Assembly (NCBI GenBank): GCA_951406725.2
Contig: OX597831.1
Span: 83,939,318-84,003,317, forward strand
Reading direction: 5' to 3'
Source: Octopus vulgaris
Lineage: Eukaryota
DNA: 64,000 bases
Of the stretch, positions 15,746 to 54,300 are shown one piece after another. A program made the translations under genes and the position numbers. Below the pieces are notes generated by a model. That model ran no database searches. It saw only the letters and a list, made by a program, of their open reading frames with translations, and was not told the origin of the DNA. The number at the start of each line of letters is the position of its first letter. The first letter of the stretch is position 1.

Positions 15746-16049
<304 letters not shown>

Positions 16050-16050
<1 letters not shown>

Positions 16051-16635
16051 TACATACATTCATACATATACACGTGTAGATACCCACATACGCATATATA
16101 CTATCTAAAACGAAATGAAAACCTGATTAAGTCCAAAGGGCAGTACTAGATATTGTTAGTAATTTATATAGTTGTGGGGTGTAATTAAATGTAAATTATA
16201 AGCTAGTCAATGTTTATTCGTTTAAGTTAGCAGCAGAAAAGTTGCCTGTGTATGTTTGTCTCTTCCTGTGCGAATGCAAGTGTGTCCTCCGCAAGCGAAA
16301 AACAAACACACTTACATATTAAACTTTCATGTCTTTTTTTTTTTATAGGCTTCAAGGGAAGTAACTCTAGAATATATTGTAGTTATCTCCCGTGAATATT
16401 TAGTTAAGAGAATACACACTTTTGTCGATATTTTCTATTTTACTCACTTCATTTTTTCAGTTATTTGACTGTGGCCATGGTGGAGCAGCGCCCTTTATTC
16501 GAGCAAATCAACCCCAGGACTTATACTTTGTAGGCCTAGTATTTAATCGATCAGTCTCTTTTCCAGAACCGCTAAGTTACGGGGACGTGAAAGCACCAGC
16601 ACCAGTTGTCAAGCGTTGTTGGAGGGATAGACGAA
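16050..16635 (+). repeat. Diverged ~0.55-0.6-kb direct repeat, copy 1 (partner at 21085-21640)
   Basis: cacgtgta.atacccacatacgcatatatactatctaaaac...aagggaagtaactct...agttatctccc is followed by a SINE family 1 fragment in both copies. Confidence 0.8.
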
Positions 16636-16670
16636 CAAACGTATATATATATATATATATATATATTCAT

Positions 16671-16715
<45 letters not shown>

Positions 16716-16736
16716 CATACATACACGCACACACAC

Positions 16737-16773
<37 letters not shown>

Positions 16774-16794
16774 CATACATACACGCACACACAC

Positions 16795-16838
<44 letters not shown>

Positions 16839-16844
16839 TTTTTC

Positions 16845-19555: not shown

Positions 19556-20922
19556 GTATTATGCTTCATTTCCTTTATTGCTGCTAAGACATCAGGAGCG
19601 CCAAAGGTTATGACCGATAAAGTATATTGGGGAGTAACATCACTGATACAGCCCAGATCAGTCATATCAGGATTGCTGAAAACAGAGCAATATTGTTTCT
19701 GCAATATCTCTCCCATGGTTTTGGCATTGTCTTGAAGAGTACCATTTTCATCAATCAGAGGGCCAACAGTAGAACCAGTGACTCTGTGTATTTTTGCAAA
19801 TGAAAAGAACACTTTGGGATTGAGTTTGATCTTCTCAATGGCCCAGGACTCTTCAGCTCTTCACTGACTATTGATGATAGACATCATGTTGTTTTGGAGT
19901 TTATGTTTTTTAATCTCTAGCGACGAGATGGCAGTCAGGTTGGTGTGTTGCTGTTGACAGTATTTCAGCTCGTTGATTTTTTTGTTAATTCATTTAATTT
20001 TCCTGATGAGATATTTTCTATTTCTAGGGATTCGACACTTAGATTTGTTTGCAGATCTTAATGGGGTGTGGTTTGCACATATGTTCGTAATGGTGTCTAC
20101 AAATGACTGCCAGGACTTTTTGATGTTAGTGGGTGTGTATGTGTGCGTGAAGGACCAATCGACTTGTGCAAGATCATTATTGATCGCTTCCCAGTTTGCA
20201 TTGTGGAAATCCATAGTGTCAAATGAATGAACAGGAGGGATGACATTTGTTTTGCATTTTGGCCGGTGAAATCTCAGATCACAGAGAACCATGTCATGAT
20301 CAGAGAGTAAAGTTTTCTCCACTGCAATATTGTGGATAGTATCAGTGTGATTGCTGAAAATTAAGTCTAAGAGGTTTTTGTGACATCTCGTTGGTTCGAG
20401 CACCAGTTGGGACAGGAAGAAATCATCCATGAAGTCAAGAAGCGATTCCACTGCCTCCCTGTCAGGGGTTGAGAGAGAAGAACCTGACGGCAGACTGTTT
20501 GTAGACCAGTCAACCCCGGGAAGGTTGAAGTCTCCCATCATTAAAATGTTGTCAGGTTGACACTGCTGAATGAAACACTTTATGTTGTTGAGGCATTCCT
20601 TGAAGCAAGGTAGGGGCGTTTGGGGTGGTCTGTAGAGCCCAACTACTGTTAAGTTGTTGGTTTGACTGAATACAGCGACTGCTTCGCAGTATCCATTGGA
20701 AAATATGTTCATAGCTTCTGTTGAGAATGAATCATGAACATAAATGGCAGTCCCACCCTTTCTTCTGCCAGCACGATCAGCACGAATGGCTTTGAAATTT
20801 TTAACTTTCACCTCGGCTTCCAAGTGGAGGTTACTAAGATGGGTTTCAGTGAGGACGAAGAAAGGGATGTGGTTTGGATGGGCATCGACCCAGTCCTCCA
20901 GGAATTTTATCTTCCATTTTTT
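19556..20922 (-). mobile_element. CR1-like LINE B fragment (APE endonuclease and linker, no RT), fused to LINE A
   Basis: ORF 19990-20823 encodes an APE domain (RADR..GGTAIYV, LYRPP, MGDFNLP, LDLIFSN, SDHD). The pre-RT linker (VGPLID..QYCSVFS) runs to ~19556. Confidence 0.88.
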
Positions 20923-21017
20923 AGTATATATATATATATATATATATACATAGGTATATACCTACATATATATATATATATAAAATTATAAATTTATGAA
21001 TATATATATATACATAC

Positions 21018-25169: not shown

Positions 25170-25617
25170 TGTGGTGTGTGGTGAAGGAGTGTGACGGATG
25201 GGGGAGAGCGGAAGTGGGGCTTGGGGAGAATGAGATGGACTGGGCAACAGGTGGACGTGTTTGCCAATGAGCTTAGAAGACTGGCTAAATTGGCGGGTTA
25301 TGAGGGAGTGTAGTGAGTGTGCGCGATTTGAATATAGAGGCACCTACCTTCTCTTCGTAGTGACGGAGATCCTCCCGAGATGGCTGGTCCTTCCTCACAG
25401 CCCCTACCCGAACACTAACGATAGCAGCTGCTAGCCCCAAACCCTTTAGCGACTTCCTCGCACGTCTTGTCACCAGCACAACCCACGTTGGAAAGGTCAA
25501 CTTCCGCCCTCTGCGCGCGCTTGACGGCTGACCCCTTCCGCTTGCCCCAGCTTCCGGTCAACGCACCCCGCTGGCTGACGTCCTGCTGCTGACGTCATCC
25601 CACACGCCACCCTGATC

Positions 25618-28487
25618 TTAAAGATCACAATCTCTCCGCTCCATGTTGTAGTCTACCATCCAACCGGGAGAACGCCTTGCTCGTCGAGATCTTCTCAAGC
25701 TGGGCTCCTCACTCTCCCCCTCTCCCGAATCATCGTCCGTCGAAGCAACAATCCTGCGAAGGTCCAAGACATGTCGAGGTGTGCCATCTACGGATACGTT
25801 GCTTCTGGAATTGATCGCCGTCACCGTTCCTCTGCTCCATTGAGACGTACAGCGCGCCTTTGGTGGATTGACCCAGACTTCCTCCCCTATTTTCACGCGA
25901 ACGGGTCCCTTCTCTTCCTCGTGACCCTCCGGCGCTTTGCTCGGGTGCCTCCATTCATATTTGAACACAGCTCTCTGCGGCACAGATTCCTCAGCCTGTC
26001 CGGATCGGGGAGACAAGTTGTACCAAAAAACTGCTTCAAGCGGCGAAATGTGCCCTCTTTCCGCTATGGCCTTGACTGTCCGATGGTGCCTCTCCACGAT
26101 CCCATTACCGCCCGGCCTATACGCTGCTCTGAACAAGCGTCGCACGTTCCACCGATCAAGCATAACCCTCAATGCTTCCGAACGAAACGCCGCCCCGTTG
26201 TCCATCAGTAGTTCTTCCACGGGACCTCTCTCTAAAAATATCCCGTTCAGGATCTGCACGATCTCGTCAGCAATGCCCGATCTCAACTCCCTCCAAATGG
26301 CCAGCCGGCCCGGCCCACAGTCGACCATGGAGAGGTACATTCGCTGACGGTAGTGTGTCACATCCACAGCTAGCCTTTTCCACTTCTGCTCCACGGAAAG
26401 GCTTCCCTGTTCATGCCCACACGGAGCAGGGTCGATGGACTGACACCTGTCGCAGCTCCCGACCACCTTCCGGACGCTTCTCCTGGTCACGTCAGCATCA
26501 ATCTTTTTTGCCAGATACAGGGTCCTGTCCACACCCAGGTGATGCATAGCGTGCAGTTTCTTCAGTTCAGAGTCATCCAACCGACACGCCGCAGCTATCC
26601 CTTTCCGGGCCTCCTCCGGTTCTTCCAACCACGCCCTTTTCACCCTGGTCAGTACGTCCGCCTTGTTTTTCTTCGAAGGCACGAAGACCACGTTCAGCTT
26701 CAGTCCGAATTCGGCGATCAATTCACCTAGAACTCCTAGACGGCGCTTCACTAACATCTCCGCAGCACCTTTCGTCCGCACTCTCCTGTCACCGGTGATC
26801 ACCGATCCTACCCAGCCAAGTACAGTGGCCGAATCCGTCCGTATTTCAATCGTGCGCAGCCCCCATTTCAAGGTCAAGTTCACCCCTTTCAGCAGCGCGT
26901 CTAATTCGGCGACATTGATGTGGTTGAAATCATCTGCTTTCCGAAGCCAGGCCGCGTCCTCCACCGCAGTGCCTTCGATTGCCAACACCACCCCTATCGC
27001 TATACTGCTAGCATCACACCAGACGGTCCCGCATTTCGTCTTGGGCACGTACCAGTTCCCCCTGACCGGGTCTTCCGCTCTTGTCCTCTCTAGAATCTCC
27101 TGCATCATCGCCACCGTCCCTTCTCCCACCTTGTCGCCCCACCTCTCTCCTTCTGCTCGTCTCTTGGTGTAACTACACGCCGTGCGCAGCCATCCAGCGA
27201 TCGGGTAGTGACCGACCAACTTCCCACACACCGAGAACAGCTCTCTCCTGCTGACGCTGGAACTCAGCTCTGGGATTTCATTTCCTCTCCGGAACACCAA
27301 TTCACCTGATCTATCTCTTCGCAGCTTCAGCCCCAGCGCGGCTCCCCCTTCAATCGACTCCGGTGGCTTAGCAACCAGTCCGAACTTCTCCAGATGTCTC
27401 ACTACCTCGTCGGCTGGCACTACAGTTTCGTCCACCAAAATGTCGTCAATGTAGGAGCTGGTGGCCTTCCTAATCTTGCCGTCTTTCCCTAGGACGGACC
27501 TAAGCACTGCCGCCATGATCTTCGGAGCGGAATTCAGCCCGAAACCCAGCCTGGTTAGACAGTACGTCCGGCCCTTGTACCGCACCAGCTGATATCGCCA
27601 TAGTTTGTCGCTCACATGGAGCTGCAAGTATGCCGATCTCAAGTCGACAATCGTCGCTGCCTCAGTCGACTGTCTCCACTTACGTAATGCCTCACCACAA
27701 ACGTCTGTTGCCTCACCTCCCGTGTGACACGATATGTGCTGGTTTAGCTTCCTGAAGTCCAGCACCGGTCTGACTTTTCCCTTCGTAGGCTGCACCACCG
27801 CCATCAGGGGTAGCACTCCACCCGCTACCTCCTCCTTCCAAGGGACAAGGACCCCTTCCTCGATCCACCTCTCCACCTCGTCTTCAAACCCAACCCTGGC
27901 TTGGCCTTTCAGGGTATGCTGGTAACAGCTCACCCTGTTCTCCAGTGTCGGGGGCTCGTCCTTCCATTTCCACTCTATCGTCCACCGCTGACCATCGAAC
28001 GCCGTCTGGAAGTCTTTGTCCTCGATGGTGTAAGCGGCGCAGTCCCTCGTGGGGCTCTGCTCCCTCTGGCGATCCTGACTCGCAGTGCACAACGCCCCCA
28101 CGCTTCCGAACGTGACCTCATTTCCCACAACACTGACGCCACCGAGGCAGTTGATGGCGTCCATCCCCATCACCACATCAACTCCATTTATCACGCGTTC
28201 GGCCACAATTGCCTGTAGCCATAGCGTCGCGCCGCGCACCACTATCTCTACCTTGCTGCTGCCTCTGCAACGGATTTCGCTGCCGTCGACCGCCCGGACA
28301 CTACACACCCCGTTCCATTCCTTCGTCACCCTCGAAGTCACCAGGGTGGTCGTACAGCCCGTATCCACAAGGGCCTTGAACGTCTCCCCCTCGGCCTCCA
28401 CGTCAATCAATGGCAGCGTCTCCAATAGCGCCTCTACTCGTTTGAGGGGAAAGTTCGAGAGGCAGCAACTTCCCGCGGTCGTTTCCC
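25618..28487 (-). CDS. pol: Pol (protease, RT, RNase H, integrase), entered by -1 frameshift
   Basis: ALVDTGC (PR); RPVLDF, FGLNSAP, YIDD (RT); DAS..E..D (RH); H..H..CDRC and D/DNG/VER (IN). It overlaps gag in the -1 frame at GGGAAAC (28481-28487). Confidence 0.93.
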
Positions 28488-29197
28488 TGGCCGCAATCAC
28501 GGGCAATGTGCCCTGTCTGCCTGCATCGATAGCAAACGGGCCCCGGCTGCGTACAGTCCCGCGCCATGTGCGGTCCCTGGCATCTAAAACACCGTCCTGA
28601 GAACGGCCGCTCTCGTTGCACGGCGGGCTTCTGTACCTCTTTCTCGGGACGTCGTCCGTCTTTACGCGCCTCCGTCACCGCCATCGCTATCGCCTTCCGC
28701 CCAGAGTGTCTCGTCAACGCGCGAGCATGAGTTACAAGTTCGCTCAATGGCATCTTATTGACCCCGGGCAGTTGTTGTAGGTGAATCCCTACATCGTCGG
28801 GGAACCCATTCACGAACGCCAGTCGGGCTGCTCTCTCCAGTTCTTCTCCGGCAAACCCGGCCAGAGTCGCTAGCCTTCTAGCTTCCGATGCAAAATCATC
28901 CACCTGGCCTCCCGTCCACCTGATTGCACCTAGCTTAGCGAAAGCTGTGTACTCGCATTCCGTGTATGCGTCACACAAGCGCCGCTTTATATTCTCATCG
29001 CAGAGCCGTTCTTCGACATCCATCTCTATGTAAAGCGACAACGCACTCCCTTCCAAATACAGCGCCATAAGACTCGCCACGTCGCTTATGCCCTGCAGTC
29101 TCGCCACCAGCCTGATTTTCTGAATCCAGTCCACTACATCGCCTTCGCCGTTAAAAGGTCTGACGACGTCACTGGCGATCCTAATTTTTGCAGACAT
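28403..29197 (-). CDS. gag: Gag with two zinc knuckles
   Basis: 264-aa ORF just after the 5' LTR, with CFRCQGPHMARDC and CYRCRQTGHIARDC. Confidence 0.92.
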   Translation of the reverse strand: MSAKIRIASDVVRPFNGEGDVVDWIQKIRLVARLQGISDVASLMALYLEGSALSLYIEMDVEERLCDENIKRRLCDAYTECEYTAFAKLGAIRWTGGQVDDFASEARRLATLAGFAGEELERAARLAFVNGFPDDVGIHLQQLPGVNKMPLSELVTHARALTRHSGRKAIAMAVTEARKDGRRPEKEVQKPAVQRERPFSGRCFRCQGPHMARDCTQPGPVCYRCRQTGHIARDCGQGNDRGKLLPLELSPQTSRGAIGDAAID

Positions 29198-29229
29198 CGT
29201 GTTGAAAAAAAATGTGAATGTTTACGAAC

Positions 29230-29242
29230 TGCCGAAATAGCT
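29230..29242 (-). promoter_or_regulatory. Putative primer-binding site AGCTATTTCGGCA
   Basis: It abuts the 5' LTR. An identical 13-mer abuts the family-2 5' LTRs (38329, 43443, 51598) although the LTRs are unrelated. Confidence 0.8.
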
Positions 29243-32200
29243 TGTAGTGAGTGTGTGCGATTTGAATATAGAGGCACCTACCTTCTCTTCGTGGTGACGG
29301 AGATCCTCCCGAGATGGCTGGTCCTTCCTCACAGCCCCTACCCGAACACTAACGATAGCAGCTGCAAGCCCCAAACCCTTTAGCGACTTCCTCACACGTC
29401 TTGTTACCAGCACAACCCACGTTGGAAAGGTCAACTTCCGCCCCCTGCACGCGCTTGACGGCTGACCCCTTTCGCTTGCCCCAGCTTCCGGTCAACGCAC
29501 CCCGCTGGCTGACGTCCTGCTGCTGACGTCATCCCACAGGAGAGTCGCTAGAACGGACGATTAGGTTAGCGTTCGTGACCGGCTTTCCCGACATCATGTC
29601 GGTCGAGCTACAGAAGCTCCCGAACGTGCGTTCGATGCCGATGGCCGATATCATGTCGCGGGCACGTGTACTGGTTTCGTGCAGCAAGTTGACGTCGGTA
29701 GCAGCGACTGTAACGTCGAAAACTGGCCCAGCTAGGAGCAGCGGAGAGGGGCTGAGGAAAGAACGTGTGCGACTGTTCATAGGAGAGTGTTTCCGGTGCC
29801 AAGGTCCACACATGGTCCGTAACTGCGCGTCGCCCAAGCCTGAGGTGATTTGCTACCGGTGTCGAGAGCCAGGGCATGTAGCCAGCGAGTGTCTGCGGGG
29901 AAACGGACCGCGGGAGACTACTGCGCTGGTAGTCGTCCCTTTCGATTAGTAGCGGCGCGTTTATCATCGCTACCTGTGGTCGACATTCTGGTGAAGGGGA
30001 AGATGTCGCGAGCTCTGGTGGACACGGGCTGTACAACGACCCTGATGACTACGGAAGTGGCATCCACCAGAATGTCGTCGATGTATGAATTGGTGGCCCT
30101 TTTTACTCTGTCCACCTTCCCCAGGATGGCCTTGAGAATTGTTGCCATAATCTTCGGCGCCGAATTCAGCTCGAATTCCAACCTGGTCAGACAGTACGTC
30201 CGGCCCCTATACCTGACGAGCTGGTACTTCCATAATTTCTCAGCCACATGCACCTGTAGGTATGCCGACTTCAAATCGACAATCGTGGAGGGCCCAGTCG
30301 TCTGCCTCCACTCTCGCAAGGTGTCTCCGCAGACATCCGTGGCCTCGCCGCCTGTATGACACGACACGTGGTCATTCAGCTCTCGGAAGTCGAGCACTGG
30401 CCTGACCTTACGCTTTGTGGGCTGTATCACCGCCATCAGTGGCAGGACTCCGCTCTCTTCTTTTTCCCAAGGGATCAGTATGCCCTCCTTAATCCACCGC
30501 TCCACTTCCCCCTCGAACTCACTTCTGGCATCCCCTTTTAGAGTATGCTGATAGCAGCCCATTTTATTCTTTAACATCGGGGGCTCTCCCTTCCAGTGCC
30601 ACTCCACTGTCCACCTCTTGCCATCAAAGACAGCCCGAAAATCCTGGTCTTCAATGGTGTGCGCCGCATCCTTTTCCTCACGGTTGTCGTCGGTACACGG
30701 TCTCGCCCTACACGGCTTCCCCGCTAACCCAAACGTTACGCCAGCCTCGTTGACGGTGACACCTCCCAAACGGGTGATTGCATCCATCCCCATCACCACG
30801 TCAATCTCGTCCACCAAGTGACCAACCACAATTGCACGTAACGTCAGCTGTAGTCCCTGCACCACAATCTGCGCATCCGTACCCCTTCGCAGTACACTTC
30901 TCTTCCGTCGACTGCCCTAACACTGCTTCCACCACTCCACGTGCACTTCGCAGTGCACTTCTCTTCCGTCGACTGACCTAACACTGCTTCCTCCACTCCA
31001 CGTGGAGTGGAGGAAGCAGTGTTAGGGCAGTCGACGGAAGAGAAGTGCACTGCGAAGGGGTTACGGATGCGCAGATTGTGGTGCAGGGACTACAGCTGAC
31101 GTTGCGAGCAATTGTGGTTGGTCACTTGGTGGACGAGATTGACGTGGTGATGGGGATGGATGCAATCACCCGCTTGGGAGGTGTCACCGTCAACGAGACT
31201 GGCGTAACGTTTGGGTTAGCGGGGAAGCCGTGTAGGGCGAGACCACGCACCGACGACAACCGTGAGGAAAAGGATGCGGCGCACACCATTGAAGACCAGG
31301 ATTTTCGGGCTATCTTTGATGGCGAGAGGTGGACAGTGGAGTGGTACTGGAAGGAGAGCCCCTATGTCAAAGAATAAAGTGGGCTGCTATCAGCATACTC
31401 TAAAATGGGATGCCAGAAGTGAGTTCGAGGGGGAGGTGGAGCGGTGGATTAAGGAGGGCATACTGATCCCCTGGGAAAAAGAAGAGAGCGGAGTCCTGCC
31501 ACTGATGGTGGTTATACAGCCCACAATCATAAGGTCAGGCCACTGCTTGACTTCCGAGAGCTGAATGACCACGTGTCGTGTCATACAGGCGGCGAGGCCA
31601 CGGATGTCTGCGGAGACACATTGCGAGAGTGGAGGCAGACGGCGGGGGCCTCCACGATTGTCGATTTAAAGTCGGCATACCTTCAGGTGCATGTGACTGA
31701 GATACTATATACGTACCAGCTCGTCAGGTATAGGGACCGGAGGTACTGTCTGACCAGGTTGGGATTCGGGCTGAATTCAGCGCCGAAGATTATGGCAACA
31801 ATTCTCAAGGCCATCCTGGGGAAGGTGGACAGAGTAAAAAGGGCCACCAATTCAAACATCGACGACATTCTGGTGGATGAAACCGTGATACCAGCAACGG
31901 AGGTCATACGCCACCTGAAGAGTTTTGGACTGATCGCCAAGCCGCCAGAGTCTATGGAGGGAGATGCAGCACTGGGCCTCAAGGTATGGAGATACAAGGC
32001 CGGCGCCTTGGTGTTCCGGCGAGGGAATGAGGTCCCTGAACTGGGCGCCAGCATGAGTAGACGGCAACTGTTCTCTGTGTGTGGGAAGCTGGTGGGACAC
32101 TACCCGATTGCAGGCTGGCTCCGGACAGCATGTAGCTTCATCAAGAGACGAGCCGAAGGAGTGAAGTGGAATGATGAAGTGGGGGAGAGGACAATCGAAA

Positions 32201-35200
32201 TGATGCAGGAAGTCTTGGCCAGAGTAGGAGCAGAGGACCCAGTGAGGGGCAACTGGTATGTTCCCAAATCAAAGAGCGGTATCGTATGGTGTGACGCCAG
32301 TTGCATCGCAATAGGGTTGTCTTGGAAGTGGGAGGTGTCACGGTGGAAGATGCGGCCTGGCTCAGGAAGATGGATGACTGCAATCATATCAACGTGGCGA
32401 AGTTGGTTGCCGTGCTGAAGTGGGTGAACCTAGCCTTGAAGTGGGGGTTGCACACCATAGAAATCAGGACTGATTCGGCCACTGTACTTTGTTGGGCGAC
32501 AGCAGTCATCACCGATGAGCGGAGGGTGCGGACCAAAGGGGCTGCAGAGATGCTGGTAAAGCGTCGATTAGGAATACTGCGTGAACTAACCACTGAGTTC
32601 AATCTGGAGCTGAGCGTGATCTTTGTGCCTTCCGAGAAGAACAGGGCAGACGTCCTGACCAGGGTAAAGCGAGCCTGGTTGCAGGTGCCAGAGGATACGA
32701 AGCAGGATGTAGCTGCAGTATGCCGTCTGAGCGACTCGGAGTTACGGAGACTGCACACCATGCATCACATGGGTGTGGACAGGACATTGTTCCTGGCCAG
32801 AAAATTGACTCCGACGTAACAAGACAGAGTGTGCAGAGAGTGGTTAGCAGTTGTGACAGGTGCCAGTCCATCGACCCTGCTCCGGTCGTGCATGAAGCGG
32901 GAAGTATTCCAGTGGACCAGGACTGGAGACGACTGGCGATGGACATAACACGCTACCGGCAGGGGACATACCTCTCAATGGTTGACTGCGGACCGGGGAG
33001 GTTCGCCATATGGAGGGACACGGTGGACACGGGCTGTACAACGACCGTGATGACTACGGAAGTGGCATTCACCAGAATGTCGTCGATGTATGAATTGGTG
33101 GCCCTTTTTACTCTGTCCACCTTCCCCAGGATGGCCTTGAGAATTGTTGCCATAATCTTCGGCGCTGAATTCAGCCCGAATCCCAACCTGGTCAGGCAGT
33201 ACGTCGGGCCCCTATATCTGACGAGCTGGTACTTCCATAATTTCTCAGCCACATGCACCTGTTGGTATGCCGACTTCAAATCGACAATCGTGGAGGCCCC
33301 CGTCGTCTGCCTCCACTCTCGCAAGGTGTCTCCGCAGACATCCGTGGCCTCGCAGCCTCTATGATACTAAACGTGGTCATTCAGCTCTCGGAAGTCAAGC
33401 ACTGGCCTGACCTTATGCTTTGTGGGCTGTATCACCACAATCAGTGGCAGGACTCCGCTCTCTTCTTTTTCCCAGGGGATCAGTATGCCCTCCTTAATCC
33501 ACCGCTCCACTTCCCCCTCGAACTCACTTCTAGCATCTCCTTTTAGAGTATGCTGATAGCAGCCCACTTTATTCTTTAACATCGGGGGCTCTCCCTTCCA
33601 GTACCACTCCACTGTCCACCTCTTGCCATCAAAGACGGCCCGAAAATCCTGGTCTTCAATGGTGTGCGCCGCATCCTTTTCCTCACGGTTGTCGTCGGTG
33701 CACGGTCTCGCCCTACACGGTTTCCCCGCTAACCCAAACGTTACGCCAGCCTCGTTGACGGTGACACCTCCCAAGCGGGTGATTGCATCCATCCCCAACA
33801 CCACGTCAATCTCGTCCACCAAGTGACCAACCACAATTGCTCGCAACGTCAGCTGTAGTCCCTGCACCACAATCTGCGCATCCGTAACCCCTTCGCAGTT
33901 CACTTCTCTTCCGTCGACTGCCCTAACACTGCTTCCTCCACTCCACGTGCACTTCGCAGTGCGCTTCTCTTCCGTCGACTGCCCTAACACTGCTTCCTCC
34001 ACTCCACGTGGAGTGGAGGAAGCAGTGTTAGGGCAGTCGACGGAAGAGAAGTTCACTGCGAAGGGGTTACGGATGCGCAGATTGTGGTGCAGGGACTACA
34101 GCTGACGTTGCGAGCAATTGTGGTTGGTCACTTGGTGGACGAGAATAACATGATGATGGGGATGGATGCAATCACCCGTTTGGGAGGTGTCACCGTCAAC
34201 GAGGCTGGCGTAACGTTTGTGTTAGCGGGGAAACCGTGTAGGGCGAGACCATGCACCGACGACAAACGTGAGGAAAATGAAGCGGCGCACACCATTGAAG
34301 ACCAGGATTTTCGGGCTGTCTTTGATGGCAAGAGGTGGACAGTGGAGTGGCACTGGAAGGGAGAGCCCCCGATGTTAAAGAATAAAGTGGGCTGCTATCA
34401 GCATACTCTAAAAGGAGATGCCAGAAGTGAGTTCGAGGGGAGGTGGAGCGGTGGATTAAGGAGGGCATACTGATCCCTTGGGAAAAAGAAGAGAGCGGAG
34501 TCCTGCCACTGACGGCGGTGATACAGCCCACAAAGCATAAGGTCAGGCCAGTGCTTGATTTCCGAGAGCTGAATGACCACGTGTCGTGTCATAGAGGCGG
34601 CGAGGCCACGGATGTCTGCGGAGACACCTTGCGAGAGTGGAGGCAGACGACGGGGGGCTCCACGATTGTCGATTTGAAGTCGGCATACCTACAGGTGCAT
34701 GTGGATGAGAAATTATGGAAGTACCAGCTCGTCAGGTATAGGGGACGGACGTACTGTCTGACCAGGTTGGGATTCGGGCTGAATTCAGCGCCGAAGATTA
34801 TGGCAACAATTCTCAAGGCCATCCTGGGGAAGGTGGACAGAGTAAAAAGGGCCACCAATTCATACATCGACGACATTCTGGTGGATGAAACCGTGATTCC
34901 AGCAACGGAGGTCATAGGCCACCTGAAGAGTTTTGGAATGATCGCCAAGCCGCCAGAGTCTATGGAGGGAGGTGCTGCACTGGGCCTCAAGCTATGGAGA
35001 GACAAGGCCGGCGCGTTGGTGTTCCGGCGAGGGAATGAGGTCCCTGAACTGGGCGCCAGCATGAGTAGATGGGAACTGTTCTCTGTGTGTGGGAAGCTGG
35101 TGGGACACTACCTGATTGCAGGCTGGCTCCGGACAGCATGTAGCTTCATCAAGAGACGAGCCGAAGGAGTGAAGTGGAATGATAAAGTGGGGGAGAGGAC

Positions 35201-37037
35201 AATCGACATGATGCAGGAAGTCTTGGTCAGAGTAGGAGCAGAGGACCCAGTGAGAGGCAACTGGTATGTTCCCAAATCAAAGAGCGGTATCGTATGGTGT
35301 GACGCCAGTTGCATCGCAATAGGGTTGTCTTGGAAGTGGGAGGTGTCACGGTGGAAGATGCGGCCTGGCTCAGGAAGATGGATGACTGCAATCATATCAA
35401 CGTGGCGGAGTTGGATGCCGTGCTGAAGGGGGTGATCCTCGCCTTGAATTGGGAGTTGCACACCATAGAAATCAGGACTGATTCGGCCACTGTACTTTGT
35501 TGGGCGACAGCAGTCATCACCGATGAGCGGAGGGTGCGGACCAAAGGGGCTGCAGAGATGCTGGTAAAGCGTCGATTAGGAATACTGCGTGAACTAACCA
35601 CTGAGTTCAATCTGAAGCTGAGCGTGATCTTTGTGCCTTCCGAGAAGAACAGGGCAGACGTCCTGACCAGGGTAAAGCGAGCCTGGTTGCAGGTGCCAGA
35701 GGATGCGAAGCAGGCTGTAGCTGCAGTATGCCGTCTGAGCGACTCGGAGTTACGGAGACTGCACACCATGCATCACATGGGTGTGGACAGGACATTGTTC
35801 CTGGCCAGAAAAGTTGACTCCGACGTAACAAGACAGAGTGTGCAGAGAGTGGTTAGCAGTTGTGACAGGTGCCAGTCCATCGACCCTGCTCCGGTCGTGC
35901 ATGAAGCGGGAAGTATTCCAGTGGACCAGGACTGGAGACGACTGGCGGTGGACATAACACACTACCGGCAGGGGACATACCTCTCAATGGTTGACTGCGG
36001 ACCGGGGCGGATGAAGGAGATGAAGTCGGGGACCGCAGAAGAAATTGTGAAAGTGTTGAATGAGATATTCCTGGAACGAGGCCCCGTGGATGAACTGCTT
36101 CTGGACAACGGCACTGCATTTCGCTCGGATGTGCTGAGAGAAATTCTTGATGAGTGGAAGGTCAACCGCTACTTCAGGGCGGCATACCGGCCAAGTGGAA
36201 ACGGGGTGGTGGAAAGGCATCATCGTACCATCAAGGCCATCGCAGAGAGGCGTCACATTTCACCAGTCGAGGCCGTGTTTTGGTACAATATGTCGCCCAG
36301 ATCAGGACAGGCTGAGGAGTCGGTGCCACACAGGGCAATATTCAGGTACGAGTGGAGGCATCCCTGTACTACATCAATGCGACCCGGGGCAGAGGAAGAG
36401 CACGCCTTCGTGCAGGTCGGGGAGGAAGTCTGGGTAAAACACCCCAAACGCACGGTGTAGATCGCAATGGGGAAAGGGGACAATAACCTCCGTAAATTCA
36501 AAGAATAACATCTCGGTCGATGGTATGCCACGCCACGTTTTGGACATACGGAGGATTGTCCATGCCCCAGAGGATGGGGCCAGCAGCAGTGGGCAAGACG
36601 AAAACAACAGACAGGATGACAGGGTCGGCAGCAACACGTCAGGAACAAGTCCTAGGGTCGCACTGCGACCACAGAGGGAGCGGCACCCTCCTCCCTGGTT
36701 GGCTGATTATGAAACCAGTTTCAGGTGCGGGAGTGAGTGCGGAAGCCGGTTCAGTGATCTGTAGATCAGGGGGGCGTGTGGTGTGTGGTGAAGGAGTGTG
36801 ACGGATGGGGGAGAGCGGAAGTGGGGCTTGCAGGGCTTGCAGGGCGCATGCGCCGGAGGAAGCGGAAGTGACAGGCAGAACGCACGTGCGGCATTGAGGA
36901 GTTGCGGCAGACAGGATGAAGGGACCAGACGAGCGAGTTGGCTAAAAGCGATCCAAGTTCATCTCCGACGAGGTAAGACCCAATTACATTTCCATTCTCC
37001 CTTTTTCTGTTGTACTCATTTCACCGTTCACACTACA

Positions 37038-38059: not shown

Positions 38060-41000
38060 TGTGGTGTGATGGTGAAGGAGTGTGACGGAATGGGGGGGAG
38101 CGGAAGTGGGGCTTGCAGGTCTTGCAGGGCGCATGCGCGGGCGGAAGCGGAAGTGACAGACAGAACGCACGTGTGGCATTGACCAGTTGCGCCAGACACG
38201 ACGAAGACACCGAGAAGACACGACGCGAGCGAGTTGGCTAAAGGCGATCCGAGTTCATCTCCGGCCAGGTAAGACCCAATCACATTTCCATTCCTTTCCT
38301 TGTTCTGTTGTACACTTTTCATACTACAAGCTATTTCGGCAAATAATCACTCGGTTTCGTAAAAAAAAAAATAGAAAATTATGCAGAGTGCTATGGTTTC
38401 ACGCGAGCCTATAACACCGTTTTGCGGCGACACCGATGTGGTCGCTTGGTTGAAGAGGGTAAAGTTGGTGGCGAAGCTCCACGGTATAGCTGACCTGGCT
38501 AGTTTTATGCCGTTGTATTTGGATGGCCCGGCCTTGGCGTATATTTAGAGATGGAGGAGACGGATCAACTCAGCGCAGATAAAGTGGAGATCCGACTTAT
38601 GGAGGCCTTCGCGGAAGGAATGTTTGAAGCGTACGGTCGGCTGGGTAGAATGAGATGACCGGACAACAGGTGGACGTGTTCGCCGGTGAGCTTAGAAGGT
38701 TGGCTAAACTGGCGGGATATGAGGGAGAGTCGCTAGAACGGACGGTTAGGTTAGCGTTCGTGACCGGCTTTCCCGACATCATGTCGGTCGAGCTACAGAA
38801 GCTCCCGAACGTGCGTTCGATGCCGATGGCCGATATCATGTCGCGGGCACGTGTACTGGTTTCGTGCAGCAAGTTGACGTCGGTAGCAGCGACTGTAACG
38901 TCGAAAAGTGGCCCAGCTAGGAGCAACGGAGAGGGGCTGAGGAAAGAACGCGTGCGATCGTTCAAAGGACAGTGTTTCCGGTGCCAAGGCCCACACATGG
39001 TCCGCGACTGCGCGTCGCCCAAGCCTGAGGTGATTTGCTACCGGTGTCGAGAGCCAGGGCATGTAGCCAGCGAGTGTCTGCGGGGAAACGGACCGCGGGA
39101 GACTACTGCGCCGGTAGTTGTCCCTTTGGATTAGTAGCGGCGCGTTTATCATCGTTACCTGTGGTCGACATTCTGGTGAAGGGGAAGATGTCGCGAGCCC
39201 TGGTGGACACGGGCTGTACGACGACCCTGATGACCACAGAAGTGGCAGAGACGTGGAGTGGAGGAAGCAGTGTTAGGGCAGTTGACGGAAGAGAAGTTCA
39301 CTGCGAAGGGGTTACGGATGCGCAGATTGTGGTGCAGGGACTACAGCTGATGTTGCGAGCGATTGTGGTTGGTCACTTGGTGGACGAGATCGACGTGGTG
39401 ATGGGGATGGATGCAATCACCCGTTTGGGAGGTGTCACCGTCAACGAGGCTGGCGTAACGTTTGGGTTAGCGGGGAAACCGTGTAGGGCGAGACCACGCA
39501 CCGACGACAACCGTGAGGAAAAGGATGCGGCGCACACCATTGAAGACAAGGATTTTCGGGCTGTCTTTGATGGCGAGAGGTGGACAGTGGAGTGGCACTG
39601 GAAGGGAGAGCCCCCGATGTTAAAGAATAAAGTGGGCTGCTATCAGCATACTCTAAAAGGAGATGCCAGAAGTGAGTTCGAGGGGGAGGTGGAGCGCTGG
39701 ATTAAGGAGGGCATACTGATCCCCTGGGAAAAGAAGAGAGCGGAGTCCTGCCACTGATGGCGGTGATACAGCCCACAAAGCATAAGGTCAGGCCAGTGCT
39801 CGACTTCCGAGAGCTGAATGACCACGTGTCGTGTCATACAGGCGGCGAGGCCACGGATGTCTGCGGAGACACCTTGCGAGAGTGGAGGCAGACGGCGGGG
39901 GCCTCCACTATTGTCGATTTAAAGTCGGCATATATTCAGGTGCATGTGGCTGAGAAACTATGTGAGTACCAGCTCGTCAGGTATAGGGGCCGGACGTACT
40001 GTCTGACCAGGTTGGGATTCGGGCTGAATTCAGCGCCGAAGATTATGGCAACAATTCTCAAGGCCATCCTGGGTAAGGTGGACAGAGTAAAAAGGGCAAC
40101 CAATTCATACATCGACGACATTCTGGTGGATGAAACCATGATACCAGCAACGGAGGTCATACGCCACCTGAAGAGTTTTGGACTGATCGCCAAGCCGCCA
40201 GAGGCTATGGAGGGAGGTGCTGCACTGGGCCTCAAGCTATGGAGAGACAAGGCGTGCGCCTTGGTGTTCCGGCGAGGGAATGAGGTCCCTAAACTAGGCG
40301 CCAGCATGAGTAGACGGCAACTGTTCTCTGTGTGTGGGAAGCTGGTGGGACACTACCCGATTGCAGGCTGGCTCCGGACAGCATGTAGCTTCATCAAGAG
40401 ACGAGCCGAAGGAGTGAAGTGGAATAATGAAGTGGGGGAGAGGACAATCGAAATGATGCAGGAAGTCTTGGCCAGAGTAGGAGCAGAGGACCCAGTGAGG
40501 GGCAACTGGTATGTTCCCAAATCAAAGAGCGGTATCGTATGGTGTGACGCCAGTTGCATCGCAATAGGGTTGTCTTGGAAGTGGGAGGTGTCACGGTGGA
40601 AGATGCGGCCTGGCTCAGGAAGATGGATGACTGCAATCATATCAACGTGGCGGAGTTCGATGCCGTGCTGAAGGGGGTGAACCTAGCCTTGAAGTCGGGG
40701 TTGCACACCATAGAAATCAGGACTGATTCGGCCACTGTACTTGGTTGGGCGACAGCAGTCATCACCGATGAGCGGAGGGTGCGGACCAAAGGGGCTGCAG
40801 AGATGCTGGTAAAGCGTCGATTAGGAATACTGCGTGAACTAACCACTGAGTTCAATCTGAAGCTGAGCGTGATCTTTGTGCCTTCCGAGAAGAACAGGGC
40901 AGACGTCCTGACCAGGGTAAAGCGAGCCTGGTTGCAGGTGCCAGAGGATGCGAAGCAGGCTGTAGCTGCTGTATGCCGTCTGACCGACTCGGAGTTACGG

Positions 41001-42290
41001 ATACTACACACCATGCATCACATGGGTGTGGACAGGACATTGTTCCTGGCCAGAAAAGTTGACTCCGACGTAACAAGACAGAGCGTGCAGAGAGTGGTTA
41101 GCAGTTGTGACAGGTGCCAGTCCATCGACCCTGCTCCGGTCGTGCATGAAGCGGAAGTATTCCAGTGGACCAGGACTGGAGACGACTGGCGATGGACATA
41201 ACACACTACCGGCAGGGGACATACCTCTCAATGGTTGACTGCGGACCGGGGCGGATGAAGGGAGATGAAGTCGGGGACCGCAGAAGAAATTGTGAAAGTG
41301 TTGAATGAGATATTCCTGGAACGAGGTCCCGTGGATGAATTGCTTCTGGACAACGGCACTGCATTTCGCTCGGATGTGCTGAGAGAAATGCTTGATGAGT
41401 GGAAGGTCAACCGCTTCTTCAGGGCGGCATACCGGCCAAGTGGAAACGGGGTGGTGGAAAGGCATCATCGTACCATCAAGGCCATCGCAGAGAGGGGTCA
41501 CATTTCACCAGTCGAGGCCGTGTTTTGGTACAATATGTCGCCCAGATCAGGACAGGCTGAGGAGTCGGTGCCACACAGGGCAATATTCAGGTACGAGTGG
41601 AGGCATCCCTGTACTACATCAATGCGACCCGGGGCAGAGGAAGAGCACGCCTTCGTGCAGGTCGGGGAGGAAGTCTGGGTAAAACACCCCAACGCACGGT
41701 GTAGATCGCAATGGGGAAAGGGGACAATAACCTCCGTAAATTCAAAGAATAACATCTCGGTCGATGGTATGCCACGCCACGTTTTGGACATACGGAGGAT
41801 TGTCCATGCCCCAGAGGATGGGGCCAGCAGCAGTGGGCAAGACGAAAACAACAGACAGGATGACGCTGTCGGCAGCAACACGCCAAGAACAAGCCCTAGG
41901 GTCGCACTGCGATCACAGAGGGAGCGGCACCCTCCTCCCTGGTTGACTGATTATGAAACCAGTTTCAGGTGCGGGAGTGAGTGAGGAAGCCGGTTCAGTG
42001 ATCTGTAGATCAGGGGGGCGTGTGGTGTGTGGTGAAGGAGTGTGACGGATGGGGGAGAGCGGAAGTGGGGCTTGCAGGGCTTGCAGGGCTTGCAGGGCGC
42101 ATGCGCCGGAGGAAGCGGAAGTGACAGGCAGAACGCACATGCGGCATTGAGGAGTTGCGGCAGACAGGACGAAGGGACCAGACGAGCGAGTTGGCTAAAA
42201 GCGATCCAAGTTCATCTCCGACGAGGTAAGACCCAATTACATTTCCATTCTCCCTTTTTCTGTTGTACTCTTTTCACCGTTCACACTACA
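38060..42290 (+). mobile_element. LTR family 2, copy 2 (chimeric LTR-a...LTR-b), full length with frameshifts
   Basis: LTR-a 38060-38328, PBS 38329-38341, gag from ATG 38381 (frameshift at ~38656) to 39134, pol fragments 39083-41984, PPT, LTR-b 42021-42290. Confidence 0.93.
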
Positions 42291-43173: not shown

Positions 43174-46100
43174 TGTGGTGTGATGGTGAAGGAGTGTGAC
43201 GAAATGGGGGGGAGCGGAAGTGGGGCTTGCATGTCCTGCAGGGCGCTCTCGCGGGCGGAAGCGGAAGTGACAGACAGAAAGCAAGTGCGGCATTGACCAG
43301 TTGCGCCAGACACGACGAAGACACCGAGAAGACACGACGCGAGCGAGTTGGCTAAAGGCGATCCGAGTTCATCTCCGGCCAGGTAAGACCCAATTACATT
43401 TCCATTCCTTTCCTTGTTCTGTTGTACTCTTTTCATACTACAAGCTATTTCGGCAAATAATCACTCGGTTTCGTAAAAAAAAAAAAAGAAAATTATGCAG
43501 AGTGCTATGGTTTCACGCGAGCCTATAACACCGGTTTGCGGCGACACCGATGTGGTCGCTTGGTTGAAGAGGGTAAAGTTGGTGGCGAAGCTCCACGGTA
43601 TAGCTGACCTGGCTAGTTTTATGCCGTTGTATTTGGATGGCCCGGCCTTGGTGTTATATTTAGAGATGGAAGAGACGGACCAACTCAGCGCAGATAAAGT
43701 GGAGATCCGACTTATGGAGGCCTTCGCGGAAGGAATGTTTGAAGCGTACGGTCGGCTGGGTAGAATGAGATGACCGGACAACAGGTGGACGTGTTCGCCT
43801 GTGAGCTTAGAAGGTTGGCTAAACTGGCGGGATATGAGGGAGAGTCGCTAGAACGGACGATTAGGTTAGCGTTCGTGGCCGGCTTTCCCGACATCATGTC
43901 GGTCGAGCTACAGAAGCTTCCGAAAATGCGTTCGATGCCGATGGTCGATATCATATCGCGGGCACGTGTACTGGTTTCGTGCAGCAGGTTGACGTCGGTA
44001 GCAGCGACTGTAACGTCGAAAAGTGGCCCAGCTAGGAGCAACGGAGAGGGGCTGAGGAAAGAATGCGTTCGATCGTTCAAAGGACAGTGTTTCCGGTGCC
44101 AAGGCCCACACATGGTCCGCGACTGCGCGTCGCCCAAGCCTGAGGTGATTTGCTACCGGTGTCGAGAGCCAGGGCATGTAGCCAGCGAGTGTCTGCGGGG
44201 AAACGGACCGCGGGAGACTACTGCGCCGGTAGTTGTCCCTTTGGATTAGTAGCGGCGCGTTTATCATCGTTAACTGCGGTCGACATTCTGGTGAAGGGGA
44301 AGATGTCGCGAGCCCTGGTGGACACGGGCTGTACGACGACCATGATGACCACAGAAGTGGCAGAGACATGGAGTGGAGGAAGCAGTGTTAGGGCAGTCGA
44401 CGGAAGAGAAGTTCACTGCGAAGGGGTTTCGGATGCGCAGATTGTGGTGCAGGGACTACAGCTGACGTTGCGAGCGATTGTGGTTGGTCACTTGGTGGAC
44501 GAGATCGACGTGGTGATGGGGATGGATGCAATCACCCGTTTGGGAGGTGTCACCGTCAACGAGGCTGGCGTAACGTTTGGGTTAGCGGGGAAACCGTGTA
44601 GGGCGAGACCACGCACCGACGACAACCGTGAGGAAAAGGATGCGGCGCACACCATTGAAGACCAGGATTTTCGGGCTGTTTTGATGGCGAGAGGTGAAGA
44701 GTGGAGTGGCACTGGAAGGGAGAGCCCCCGATGTTAAAGAATAAAGTGGGCTGCTATCAGCATACTCTAAAATGAGATGCCAGAAGTGAGTTCGAGAGGG
44801 AGGTGGAGAGGTGGATTAAGGAGGGCATACTGATCCCTTGGGAAAAAGAAGAGAGCGGAGTCCTGCCACTGATGGCGGTGATACAGCCCACAAAGCATAA
44901 GGTCAGGCCAGTGCTCGAATTCCGAGAGCTGAATGACCAAGTGTCGTGTCATACAGGCGGCGAGGCCACGGATGTCTGCGGAGACACCTTGCGAGAGTGG
45001 AGGCAGACGGCGGGGGCCTCCACGATTGTCGATTTAAAGTCGGCATACCTTCAGGTGCATGTGGCTGAGAAACTATGGAAGTACCAGCTCGTCAGGTATA
45101 GGGGCCGGACGTACTGTCTGACCAGGTTGGGATTCGGGCTGAATTCAGCGCCGAAGATTATGGCAACAACTCTCAAGGCCATCCTGTGTGAGGTGGACAG
45201 AATAAAAAGGGCCACCAATTCATACAACGACGACATACTGCTGGATGAAACCGTGATTCCAGCAACGGAGGTCATAGGCCACCTGAAGAGTTTTGGACTG
45301 ATCGCCAAGCCACCAGAGGCTATGGAGGGAGGTGCTGCACTGGGCCTCAAGCTATGGAGAGACAAGGCCGGCGCCTTGGTGTTCCGGCGAGGGAATGAGG
45401 TCCCTGAACTGGGCGCCAGCATGAGTAGACGGCAACTGTTCTCTGTGTGTGGGAAGCTGGTGGGACACTACCCGATTGCAGGCTGGCTCCGGACAGCATG
45501 CAGCTTCATCAAGAGACGAGCCGAAGGAGTGAAGTGGAATGATGAAGTGGGGGAGAGGACAATCGAAATGATGCAGGAAGTCTTGGCCAGAGTAGGAGCA
45601 GAGGACCCAGTGAGGGGCAACTGGTATGTTCCCAAATCAAAGAGCGGTATCGTATGGTGTGACGCCAGTTGCATCGCAATAGGGTTGTCTTGGAAGTGGG
45701 AGGTGTCACGTTGGAAGATGCGGCCTGGCTCAGGAAGATGGATGACTGCAATCATATCAACGTGGCGGAGTTGGATGCCGTGCTGAAGGGGGTGAACCTA
45801 GCCTTGAAGTGGGGGTTGCACACCATAGAAATCAGGACTGATTCGGCCACTGTACTTTGTTGGGCGACAGCAGTCATCACCGATGAGCGGAGGGTGCGGA
45901 CCAAAGGGGCTGCAGAGATGCTGGTAAAGCGTCGATTAGGAATACTGCGTGAACTAACCACTGAGTTCAATCTGAAGCTGAGCGTGATCTTTGTGCCTTC
46001 CGAGAAGAACAGGGCAGACGTCCTGACCAGGGTAAAGCGAGCCTTGTTGCAGGTGCCAGAGGATGCGAAGCAGGCTGTAGCTGCAGTATGCCGTCTGAGC

Positions 46101-51326: not shown

Positions 51327-54300
51327 TGTGGTGTGATGGTGAAGGAGTGTGACGAAATGGGGGGGGGAGCGGAAGTGGGGCTTGCAGATCTTGCAGGGCG
51401 CATGCGCGGGCGGAAGCGGAAGTGACAGACAGAACGCACGTGCGGCATTGACCAGTTGCGCCAGACACGACGAAGACACCGAGAAGACACGATGCGAGCG
51501 AGTTGGCTAAAGGCGATCCGAGTTCATCTCCGGTCACGTAAGATCCAATTACATTTCCATTCCTTTCCTTGTTCTGTTGTACACTTTTCATACTACAAGC
51601 TATTTCGGCAAATAATCACTCGGTTTCGTAAAAAATAAAAATAGAAAATTATGCAGAGTGCTATGGTTTCACGCGAGCCTATAACACCGTTTTGCGGCGA
51701 CAGCGATGTGGTCGCTTGGTTGAAGAGGGTAAAGTTGGTGGCGAAGTTCCACGGTATAGCTGACCTGGCTAGTTTTATGCCGTTGTATTTGGATGGCCCG
51801 GCCTTGGCGTTATATTTAGAGATGGAGGAGACGGACCAACTCAGCGCAGATAAAGTGGAGATCCGACTTATGGAGGCCTTCGTGGAAGGAATGTTTGAAG
51901 CGTACGGTCGGCTGGGTAGAATGAGATGGACCGGATAACAGGTGGACGTGTTCGCCGGTGAGCTTAGAAGGTTGGCTAAACTGGCGGGATATGAGGGAGA
52001 GTCGCTAGAACGGACGGTTAGGTTAGCGTTCGTGACCGGCTTTCCCGACATTATGTCGGTCGAGCTACAGAAGCTTCCGAAAATGCGTTCGATGCCGATG
52101 GTCGATATCATATCGCGGGCACGTGTACTGGTTTCGCGCAGCAGGTTGACGTCGGTAGCAGCAACTGTAACGTCGAAAAGTGGCCCAGCTAGGAGCAACG
52201 GAGAAGGGCTGAGGAAAGAACGCGTGCGATCGTTCAAAGGACAGTGTTTCCGGTGCCGAGGCCCACACATGGTCCGCGACTGCGCGTCGCCCAAGCCTGA
52301 GGTGATTTGCTACCGGTGTCGAGAGCCAGGGCATGTAGCCAGCGAGTGTCTGCGGGGAAACGGACCGCGGGAGACTACTGCGCCGGTAGTTGTCCCTTTG
52401 GATTAGTAGCGGCGCGTTTATCATCGTTACCTGCGGTCGACATTCTTGTGAAGGGGAAGATGTCGCGAGCCCTGGTGGACACGGGCTGTACGACGACCAT
52501 GATGACCACGGAAGTGGCAGAGACGTGGAGTGGAGGAAGCAGTGTTAGGGCAGCTGACGGAAGAGAAGTTCACTGCGAAGGTGTTACGGATGCGCAGATT
52601 GTGGTGCAGGAACTACAGAGGCTATGGAGGGAGGTGCTGCACTGGGCCTCAAGCTATGGAGAGACAAGGCCGGCGCCTTGGTGTTCCGGCGAGGGAATGA
52701 GGTCCCTGAACTGGGCGCCAGCATGAGTAGACGGGAACTGTTCTCCGTGTGTGGGAAGCTGGTGGGACACTACCCGATTGCAGGCTTGCTCCGGACAGCA
52801 TGTAGCTTCATCAAGAGACGAGCCGAAGGAGTGAAGTGGAATGATAAAGATGGTGGAGAGGACAATCGACATGATGCAGGAAGTCTTGGTCAGAGTAGGA
52901 GCAGAGGACCCGGTGAGGGGCAGCTGGTATGTTCCCAAATCAAAGAGCGGGATCGTATGGTGTGACGCCAGTAGCATCGCAATAGGAGTCGTCTTGGAAG
53001 TGGGAGGTGTCACGGTGGAAGATGCGGCTTGGCCTAGGAAGACGGATGACTGCAATCACATCAACGTGGCGGAGTTGGAAGCCGTGCTGAAGGGGGTGAA
53101 TCTAGCCTTGAAGTGGGGGTTGCACACCATAGAAATCAGGACTGATTCAGCCACTGTACTTTCTTGGGCGACAGCAGTCATCACCGATGAGAGGAGGGTG
53201 CGGACCAAAGGGGCTGCAGAGATGCTGGTAAAGCGTCGATTAGGAATACTGCGTGAACTAACCACTGAGTTCAATCTGAAGCTGAGCGTGATCTTTGTGC
53301 CTTCCGAGAAGAACAGGGCAGACGTCCTGACCAGGGTAAAGCGAGCCTGGTTGCAGGTGCCAGAGGATGCGAAGCAGGCTGTAGCTGCTGTATGCCGTCT
53401 GAGCGACTCGGAGTTACGGAGACTGCACACCATGCATCACATGGGTGTGGACAGGACATTGTTCCTGGCCAGAAAAGTTGACTCCGACGTAACAAGACAG
53501 AGTGTGCAGAGAGTGATTAGCAGTTGTGACAGGTGCCAGTCCATCGACCCTGCTCCGGTCGTGCATGAAGCGGGAAGTATTCCAGTGGACCAAGACTGGA
53601 GACGACTGGCGGTGGACATAACACACTACCGGCAGGGGACATACCTCTCAATGGTTGACTGCGGACCGGGGAGGTTCGCCATATGGAGGGACACGGTGGA
53701 CACGGGCTGTACAACGACGCTGATGACTACGGAAGTGGCATCCACCAGAATGTCGTCGATGTATGAATTGGTGGCCCTTTTTACTCTGTCCACCTTCCCC
53801 AGGATGGCCTTGAGAATTGTTGCCATAATCTTCGGCGCTGAATTCAGCGCCGAATCCCAACCTGGTCAGACAGTACGTCCGGCCCCTATACCTGACGAGC
53901 TGGTACTTCCATAATTTCTCAGCCACATGCACCTGAAGGTATGCCGAGTTCAAATCGACAATCGTGGAGGCCCCCGTCGTCTGCCTCCACTCTCGCAAGG
54001 TGTCTCCGCAGACATCCGTGGCCTCGCCGCCTGTATGACACGACACGGGGTCATTCAGCTCTCGGAAGTCGAGCACTGGCCTGACCTTACCCTTTGTGGG
54101 CTGTATCACCGCCATCAGTGGCAGGACTCCGCTCTCTTCTTTTTCCCAAGGGATCACTATGCCCTCCTTAATCCACCGCACCACTTCCCCCTCGAACTCA
54201 CTTCTGGCATCTCATTGTAGAGTATGCTGCTAGCAGCCCACTTTATTCTTTAACTCGGGGGCTCTCCCTTCCAGTGCCACTCCACTGTCCACCTCTTGCC

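Follow-up and report, generated by a model that had tools for sequence, protein, structure and literature searches.

The window, by which we mean the whole 64,000-nucleotide stretch of the Octopus vulgaris genome that was analysed, contains two families of LTR retrotransposons, designated A and B, and their features are collected in Table 1. The LTRs of element A have TG...CA ends and are identical at 288 of 296 positions, and contigs from four of four public runs show its empty site, joining position 25304 to 29539 with 4 shared letters. Its pol frame encodes an aspartic protease, a reverse transcriptase (RT) with the YIDD motif, DUF7047, one RNase H and an HHCC-DDE integrase, and a search of the element against Rfam gave no match above chance. 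The family B copy that is interrupted by element A carries internal duplications and inversions. Between 29539 and 57724, family B forms a tandem array of ~28 kb with 3-kb internal duplications and inversions, which probably arose by unequal recombination between two adjacent insertions (outer flanks CACAC and GTATA). LINE-type fragments with endonuclease and RVT_1 matches lie amid microsatellite arrays at 4009-5961, 14270-20961 and 60462-61859 (-).

Table 1. Coordinates of the family A and family B features in the window
Feature	Position	Strand	Remarks
Rearranged family B copy	25170..37037	+	truncated 5' LTR from 25170; 3' LTR 36777-37037
Target-site duplication GGAG, 4 bp	25305..25308	+	second copy 29539-29542
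Family A LTR retrotransposon	25309..29538	-	4230 bp; nested within gag region of family B copy
Family A 3' LTR	25309..25604	-	296 bp
Hairpin (TGATC...GATCA) and short G-rich polypurine tract	25605..25627	-	abuts 3' LTR
pol frame, element A	25618..28674	-	stop to stop, 1018 aa
gag ORF, element A	28403..29197	-	264 aa, two CCHC zinc knuckles
Predicted primer-binding site AGCTATTTCGGC	29231..29242	-	exact complement of host tRNA-Phe(GAA) nt 1-12; abuts the CA of the LTR
Family A 5' LTR	29243..29538	-	296 bp
Family B 5' LTR, tandem duplicate 1	38060..38328	+	3' LTR at 42021-42290
Predicted family B primer-binding site, duplicate 1	38329..38340	+	
Family B 5' LTR, tandem duplicate 2	43174..43442	+	3' LTR at 50144-50404
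Predicted family B primer-binding site, duplicate 2	43443..43454	+	
Family B 5' LTR, tandem duplicate 3	51327..51597	+	3' LTR 57460-57724; pol frame 54532-57423
Predicted family B primer-binding site, duplicate 3	51598..51609	+	

The 13-mer AGCTATTTCGGCA occurs exactly four times in the 64-kb window, at 29230-29242 on the minus strand and at 38329, 43443 and 51598 on the plus strand, and no further match was found in the window at up to two mismatches (chance expectation at two mismatches, mean 1.21). A first-pass annotation had pointed to these four copies, and their positions and strands proved real: each is directly 3' of a 5' LTR that ends in ...ACTACA, and the zero spacer that it described after the CA is seen at all four. 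Their independence could not be upheld. Because the three plus-strand copies have a common upstream flank and belong to tandem duplicates that are 95-97% identical, they are duplicates of one insertion, and the window therefore contains two independent sites instead of four. The same annotation had spoken of two families with non-homologous LTRs; the A and B LTRs indeed do not align, but they have short boxes in common, and the families are close relatives (RT core 74% identical, ~71% nucleotide identity across 2.3 kb).

The start pattern of the host tRNA-Phe had 78 matches in the genome versus 0 in the control, and ARAGORN called tRNA-Phe(GAA) at 12 of 12 fetched loci, all beginning with GCCGAAATAGCT, which confirms for this genome the start that the first-pass annotation had assumed. 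Against these genes the complementarity claimed for the motif is exact: the first 12 nucleotides after the LTR, AGCTATTTCGGC, are complementary at 12 of 12 positions to nt 1-12 of the host tRNA-Phe(GAA), and this is the longest complement to any part of tRNA-Phe within elements A and B. The 13th A of the motif cannot pair, because the base preceding the host tRNA-Phe genes is itself A (11 of 12 distinct flanks). Across 29 homologues this position is A in 15, C in 9, G in 3 and T in 2, and a non-templated or discriminator base was ruled out since the position is not conserved. Thus, 12 of the 13 nucleotides originally proposed match the tRNA, and of the proposed mimicry of the acceptor 3' strand there remain the last 7 nt of the 12-nt site, which equal that strand, without the discriminator mimicry by the 13th A. 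A second motif, TTCGTAAA, had been described as shared; an exact copy is present at 7 of 30 own-genome loci and in 0 of 29 homologues, so that it is not clade-wide, and a shared functional role for it is not supported. A search of the host for variants at position 6 yielded only two deviating tRNA-like genes, each of them degenerate. Also on the contig of the window, a 200-bp tandem array (C18:30148723-30157146) contains ~40 matches to the tRNA-Phe start. Since the site is the complement of tRNA-Phe nt 1-12 and not of the tRNA tail, priming from a short 5' tRNA piece is likely, and judging from the sequences the 12-nt site probably marks a clade of elements that primes minus-strand DNA from tRNA-Phe nt 1-12. 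To this extent the interpretation of the first-pass annotation survives, with the roles of the 13th A and of TTCGTAAA and the independence of the copies and families removed from it.

With the CA of the LTR included, the motif (CAAGCTATTTCGGCA) has 152 matches in the 2.8-Gb genome versus 10 for a reversed control; gag or pol homology was present at 30 of 30 fetched loci, the LTR ends of which fall into 5 clusters. A test that does not depend on the motif started from gag, with 150 anchored matches in the same genome. Of the top 30, one of them being the window's own copy, 26 had the exact 12-mer, 3 had one substitution and 1 had a 1-nt insertion. When the site types of other hosts were sought in this genome, 10 matches were obtained with 2 elements, both single T-to-C variants, and no clade copy with another site type was found among these 10 matches. 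A search for the site at one mismatch (381 matches versus 234) says nothing about its mutation spectrum, because the control was high and only perfect matches were among those listed. An LTR pair was found in 15 of 20 fetched own-genome stretches, and in the 7 of these 15 copies for which the length of the target-site duplication (TSD) was resolved, it was exact over 5 bp in 6 and over 4 bp in 1. Seven own-genome loci (L008, L014, L015, L023, L024, L027 and L029) have a family A-type gag and family B-type LTR ends, a combination of sequences that suggests LTR exchange between families sharing the primer site.

Homologues of pol number at least 641, with Petrolisthes, Oratosquilla, Argonauta, Hydra and Macrosteles as named sources. 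From a metagenome scan 70 loci were fetched, of which 29 include the gag N-terminus and yield 25 distinct sites. The expression used to find the sites demanded AGCTAT, and AGCTAT-NN-CG-NN was found within 320 nt upstream of gag in 29 of 29 loci, directly after CA in 28; conservation in wider homologues, which the first-pass annotation had put forward as a check, is therefore observed wherever the leader is present. The distinct sites comprise AGCTATTTCGGC (TTC, 10), AGCTATCGCGGC (CGC, 8), AGCTATCACGGC (CAC, 3), AGCTATCCCGGC (CCC, 2) and 2 aberrant sites. Variation is mainly opposite tRNA positions 5-6 (AA, CG, TG, GG), and 2 of the 25 depart at tRNA positions 1-2, the distal end. The aberrant sites, AGCTATCACGCG and AGCTATTTCGTC in L085/L086 and L088, would reflect either a decay of the pairing at the distal end or host tRNA-Phe genes with an unusual start. 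In one homologue (L075:1833-1960), the leader between the primer site and gag contains a stretch resembling a tRNA; it has a T run and a motif similar to a B box, and ARAGORN does not call it. Ordinary TGG-type sites were seen in six distant integrase-only matches with LTR pairs. No relatives were found in IMG/VR, where the 4 matches to the tRNA pattern were Thr or Val.

For comparison, contigs were scanned for tRNA-Phe(GAA) with positions 5-6 free and with the first four and last six bases fixed in the pattern. This gave 68 loci, mostly archaeal; the 18 non-redundant loci with non-archaeal titles, which we infer to be stray eukaryotic contigs, have AA in 9 cases, TG in 4, GA in 2, CG in 2 and CT in 1. 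The AA, CG and TG site types are natural tRNA-Phe(GAA) 5' ends (3 of 4 site types against 5 tRNA types, p = 0.063), and the GG type was absent among the 18 loci. An RT tree was computed from 34 rows, namely A and B, five named proteins and 27 metagenome loci (L044, which was too short, L056, L057 and L091 are left out). On it the site type switches at least 9 times (shuffled mean 13.6), and the sister rows L059 (TTC) and L067 (CGC), with support of 100/99, differ by a two-base site change. This switching fits a re-tuning of the site to different host tRNAs, but it is read across anonymous metagenome hosts and so is not host-matched covariation; the site was compared with the tRNA-Phe of its own host in one genome. 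Another reading is that the match arose by chance or that the primer is some different cellular RNA with GCCGAAAUAGCU at its 3' end. The four alternative middles of the site, three of them equal to natural tRNA-Phe starts, and the excess of genome matches over the control both argue against this, and we regard it as very improbable.

A further possibility is self-priming of the Tf1/sushi type, in which the transcript of the element itself supplies the primer from its 5' end. The primer would be of similar length (11 versus 12 nt), there is no TGG site, and self-priming is known in gypsy-order elements (PMC4600332). However, the best duplexes of the site with the element's own LTR are interrupted and reach -9.5 kcal/mol in A and -10.7 kcal/mol in B, as compared with -18.7 kcal/mol for the duplex with tRNA-Phe, and in 29 of 29 homologues the sequence upstream, of which 4-452 nt could be examined, contains no reverse complement of the site with fewer than 3 mismatches. 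Moreover, self-primers drift with the LTR, whereas the site of this clade is constant while the LTRs diverge past alignment. Self-priming can hardly be credited on this evidence, and the earlier statement that the LTR contains no complement holds.

Alternatively, the motif might bind or mimic tRNA-Phe for packaging, structure or translation, and priming might be left to a protein, to a different RNA or, at a second site, to the CCA end of the intact tRNA. The last 7 nt of the site are the tRNA's own 3' acceptor strand, and for this reason covariation in the acceptor stem alone cannot separate a complement from a mimic. In addition, Ty3 makes more than one contact with its tRNA, and the RT of the clade has diverged far, its identity in fold searches being no more than 21%; both count in favour of such a role. 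Mimicry, however, covers 7 of the 12 bases: the LTR-proximal AGCTA complements tRNA nt 8-12 and is not a copy of nt 61-65. The site also sits exactly where the 3' end of an LTR primer must be. Furthermore, the sole match to the 3' end of this tRNA in the two elements is an 8-mer within the B coding region, with none in A, in agreement with the first-pass remark that a canonical primer-binding site (PBS) is lacking. A binding or mimicking role in place of priming is, in our judgement, improbable.

Where an LTR ends on its right is determined by the 3' end of the primer for the minus strand. Together with the zero spacer, this means that the primer, if it is tRNA-Phe, ends at nt 12. In principle the two leading bases of the site, AG, might instead serve the integrase as a spacer, in which case the primer would be 10 nt long and end at nt 10. 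A longer duplex, in which the end of the LTR would pair with the D loop of the tRNA, was discarded, since the TG...CA inverted repeat already dictates where the LTR stops. In the reading that we favour, the element RNA, probably helped by the CCHC nucleocapsid, would invade tRNA-Phe and form a 12-bp RNA duplex, displacing the acceptor stem's 3' strand together with the partner strand of the D stem. The predicted energy of the duplex between the site and tRNA nt 1-12 is -18.7 kcal/mol, compared with -8.8 kcal/mol for the acceptor stem that it would replace, in a calculation that ignores tRNA modifications and in which the free tRNA does not fold as a cloverleaf. The tRNA would then be cut at the end of the duplex, between U12 and C13, leaving a 3'-OH exactly at the LTR edge; the cutter would most likely be the RNase H of the element, as in Tf1. 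RT would extend the 12-nt tRNA piece, so that the cDNA would begin at the terminal CA with no extra dinucleotide; at the other end the polypurine tract (PPT) likewise abuts the LTR.

Throughout the clade, the short G-rich PPT is immediately preceded on its 5' side by a small hairpin, in the window at 25605-25627 (-) and just before 36777, 42021, 50144 and 57460 (+), and also in L051, L058, L061, L070, L084 and L085. Its arms covary (TGATC/GATCA, TGAAC/GTTCA, TGATA/TATCA, TGATT/AATCA), with a strict GATC...GATC in 13 of 44 loci, and it may define plus-strand priming. As a second contact with tRNA-Phe it was set aside, because it covaries as a self-hairpin.

The source of the cut bears on how the primer would be made. 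In Tf1, the transcript's initial 11 bases pair with the PBS and RNase H cuts the 5'-terminal duplex between bases 11 and 12 (PMC7175516). By analogy, it is possible, though short of likely, that the element's own RNase H cuts 12 nt off an intact host tRNA-Phe after invasion of the acceptor stem, which would be Tf1 chemistry in trans with a site re-tuned for each new host; RNase H acidic motifs are present in the clade pol. The site might be rewritten from the primer or might be kept by selection; Ty1 and Ty3 inherit their PBS (PMC7472051). On the other hand, a 5' tRNA-Phe fragment or half made by the host might anneal through its first 12 nt, and a nuclease of the host or of the particle, not the element RNase H, might trim it back as far as the duplex. 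Such a fragment would leave an identical DNA signature and make invasion of the acceptor stem unnecessary, and 5'-tRFs and tRNA halves are a known class of RNA (PMC7472051). However, every site type stops exactly at nt 12 and abuts the LTR, which matches the Tf1 geometry of an element-made cut, and we consider a host-made fragment unlikely while giving it serious weight. It would be a variant within 5'-end priming, not an alternative to tRNA-Phe nt 1-12 as the primer.

The clade consists of compact (~4.2 kb) LTR elements with gag, PR-RT-RNase H-IN and a divergent RT with DUF7047, the last being present in 27 of 27 aligned members. Paired TG...CA LTRs, a TSD, gag and a pol with a DDE integrase are those of LTR retrotransposons (Ortervirales), and the pol order PR-RT-RH-IN is that of Metaviridae and not the PR-IN-RT-RH of Hemivirus and Pseudoviridae. 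In Pfam the RT is weak on RVT_1, the RNase H matches RVT_3 and not RT_RNaseH, and no chromodomain was matched. Pao elements carry the specific Pfam domains Peptidase_A17 and DUF1758/1759; no Pao-specific domain of Belpaoviridae was among the 19 families matched by 27 members at E <=0.1. An AlphaFold model of the RT-RNase H region (481 aa, 91 sequences; mean pLDDT 94) contains palm, fingers, a three-helix region and one RNase H. From this model we infer that the three-helix region at DUF7047 is the thumb; DUF7047 as a tether was rejected on it, and so was identity with Odin retrotransposons or lokiretroviruses, since their dual RNase H (tether and RH) is absent and a single RNase H fold is modelled. 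The best solved match of the model is the CaMV RT (TM 0.68, 16% identity). Fold searches place caulimovirid and retroviral RTs first at 11-21% identity, and BFVD ranks caulimovirids first; the best PDB match of the integrase is 5cz2, which is retrovirus-like. No named family was returned by the PDB sequence search, the fold search or the Atlas, in which the neighbours are unnamed clusters. By sequence comparison, the clade would appear to be an unnamed, widespread lineage of LTR retroelements with named relatives in crustaceans, a cephalopod, Hydra and a leafhopper.

Should tRNA-Phe nt 1-12 be the primer, self-priming and tRNA priming would be joined, which bears on which of them came first, a question posed in an earlier paper (PMC3601003). 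It would also give a function, or a viral source, to a very short 5' tRNA fragment, and the clade would be immune to the 3'-tRF silencing described for ERVs. Pipelines that scan only tRNA 3' ends, as one does (PMC13524379), would record no PBS for it, and the 12-mer after CA is a simple marker of a large under-annotated lineage. In the portions of the literature that were available, no description of a site for tRNA nt 1-12, of the site sequence or of the clade was found, Repbase, GyDB and subscription papers being outside the search; of the 8 papers listed as containing the site sequences, none concerns retrotransposons to judge by title or abstract. It is conceivable, if rather unlikely, that Repbase already holds a description.

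Troyka, Skipper and Ronin in Repbase are divergent gypsy-like lineages with tRNA-Ala and tRNA-Arg fragment primers, and the TSD of Troyka is 3 bp. The clade differs from these in its predicted use of tRNA-Phe and in a TSD of mostly 5 bp (6 of 7 resolved; 4 bp in 1). With Metaviridae (PMC7879559) it shares LTRs, a CCHC gag, the PR-RT-RH-IN order, the absence of env, a PPT and a mostly 5-bp TSD. It differs from them in its site, which is 12 nt and not complementary to a tRNA 3' end in place of the ~18-nt PBS that is, in its RT weak on RVT_1, in its RVT_3-type RNase H and in DUF7047. Odin retrotransposons and lokiretroviruses resemble the clade in an RVT_3-type RNase H, a retrovirus-like integrase and cnidarian relatives, but they have a tether and a second RNase H (PMC9040795), whereas in the model of the clade one RNase H directly follows the thumb-like region.

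With regard to priming, the ICTV profiles describe the use of tRNA 3' ends and, for hemiviruses, of a short tRNA segment (PMC7879559, PMC8515867), and in the sources cited here, tRNA-primed LTR elements start either from the CCA terminus or from a fragment that stops close to the anticodon, and Tf1 uses its own 5' end. Hemivirus-type copia, Ty5 and the fungal Copia/Helenus elements take as primer the 5' part of a host tRNA, the 3' end of which has been newly made, and the clade is predicted to do likewise; the fungal study lists anticodon-loop tRNA fragments as primers (PMC10886601). Hemivirus sites, in the descriptions of these texts, have the anticodon loop of an iMet, Tyr, Ile or Asp tRNA as their pairing partner in elements of copia order (PMC10886601, PMC8515867), unlike the site of the clade, which matches tRNA-Phe nt 1-12 from the acceptor 5' strand to the D stem in elements with the integrase after RT. 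The likeness to Tf1, Tf2 and sushi (Metaviridae; PMC7175516, PMC4600332) lies in the gypsy-type domain order, in a predicted primer of 11-12 nt from the extreme 5' end of an RNA, and in a 3'-OH that has to be produced by cutting where an RNA-RNA duplex ends. In contrast to them, the predicted primer of the clade is host tRNA-Phe in trans and not its own mRNA, with no LTR complement and no chromodomain. The site of the clade may thus represent fragment priming that works like that of Tf1 but is not self-priming.
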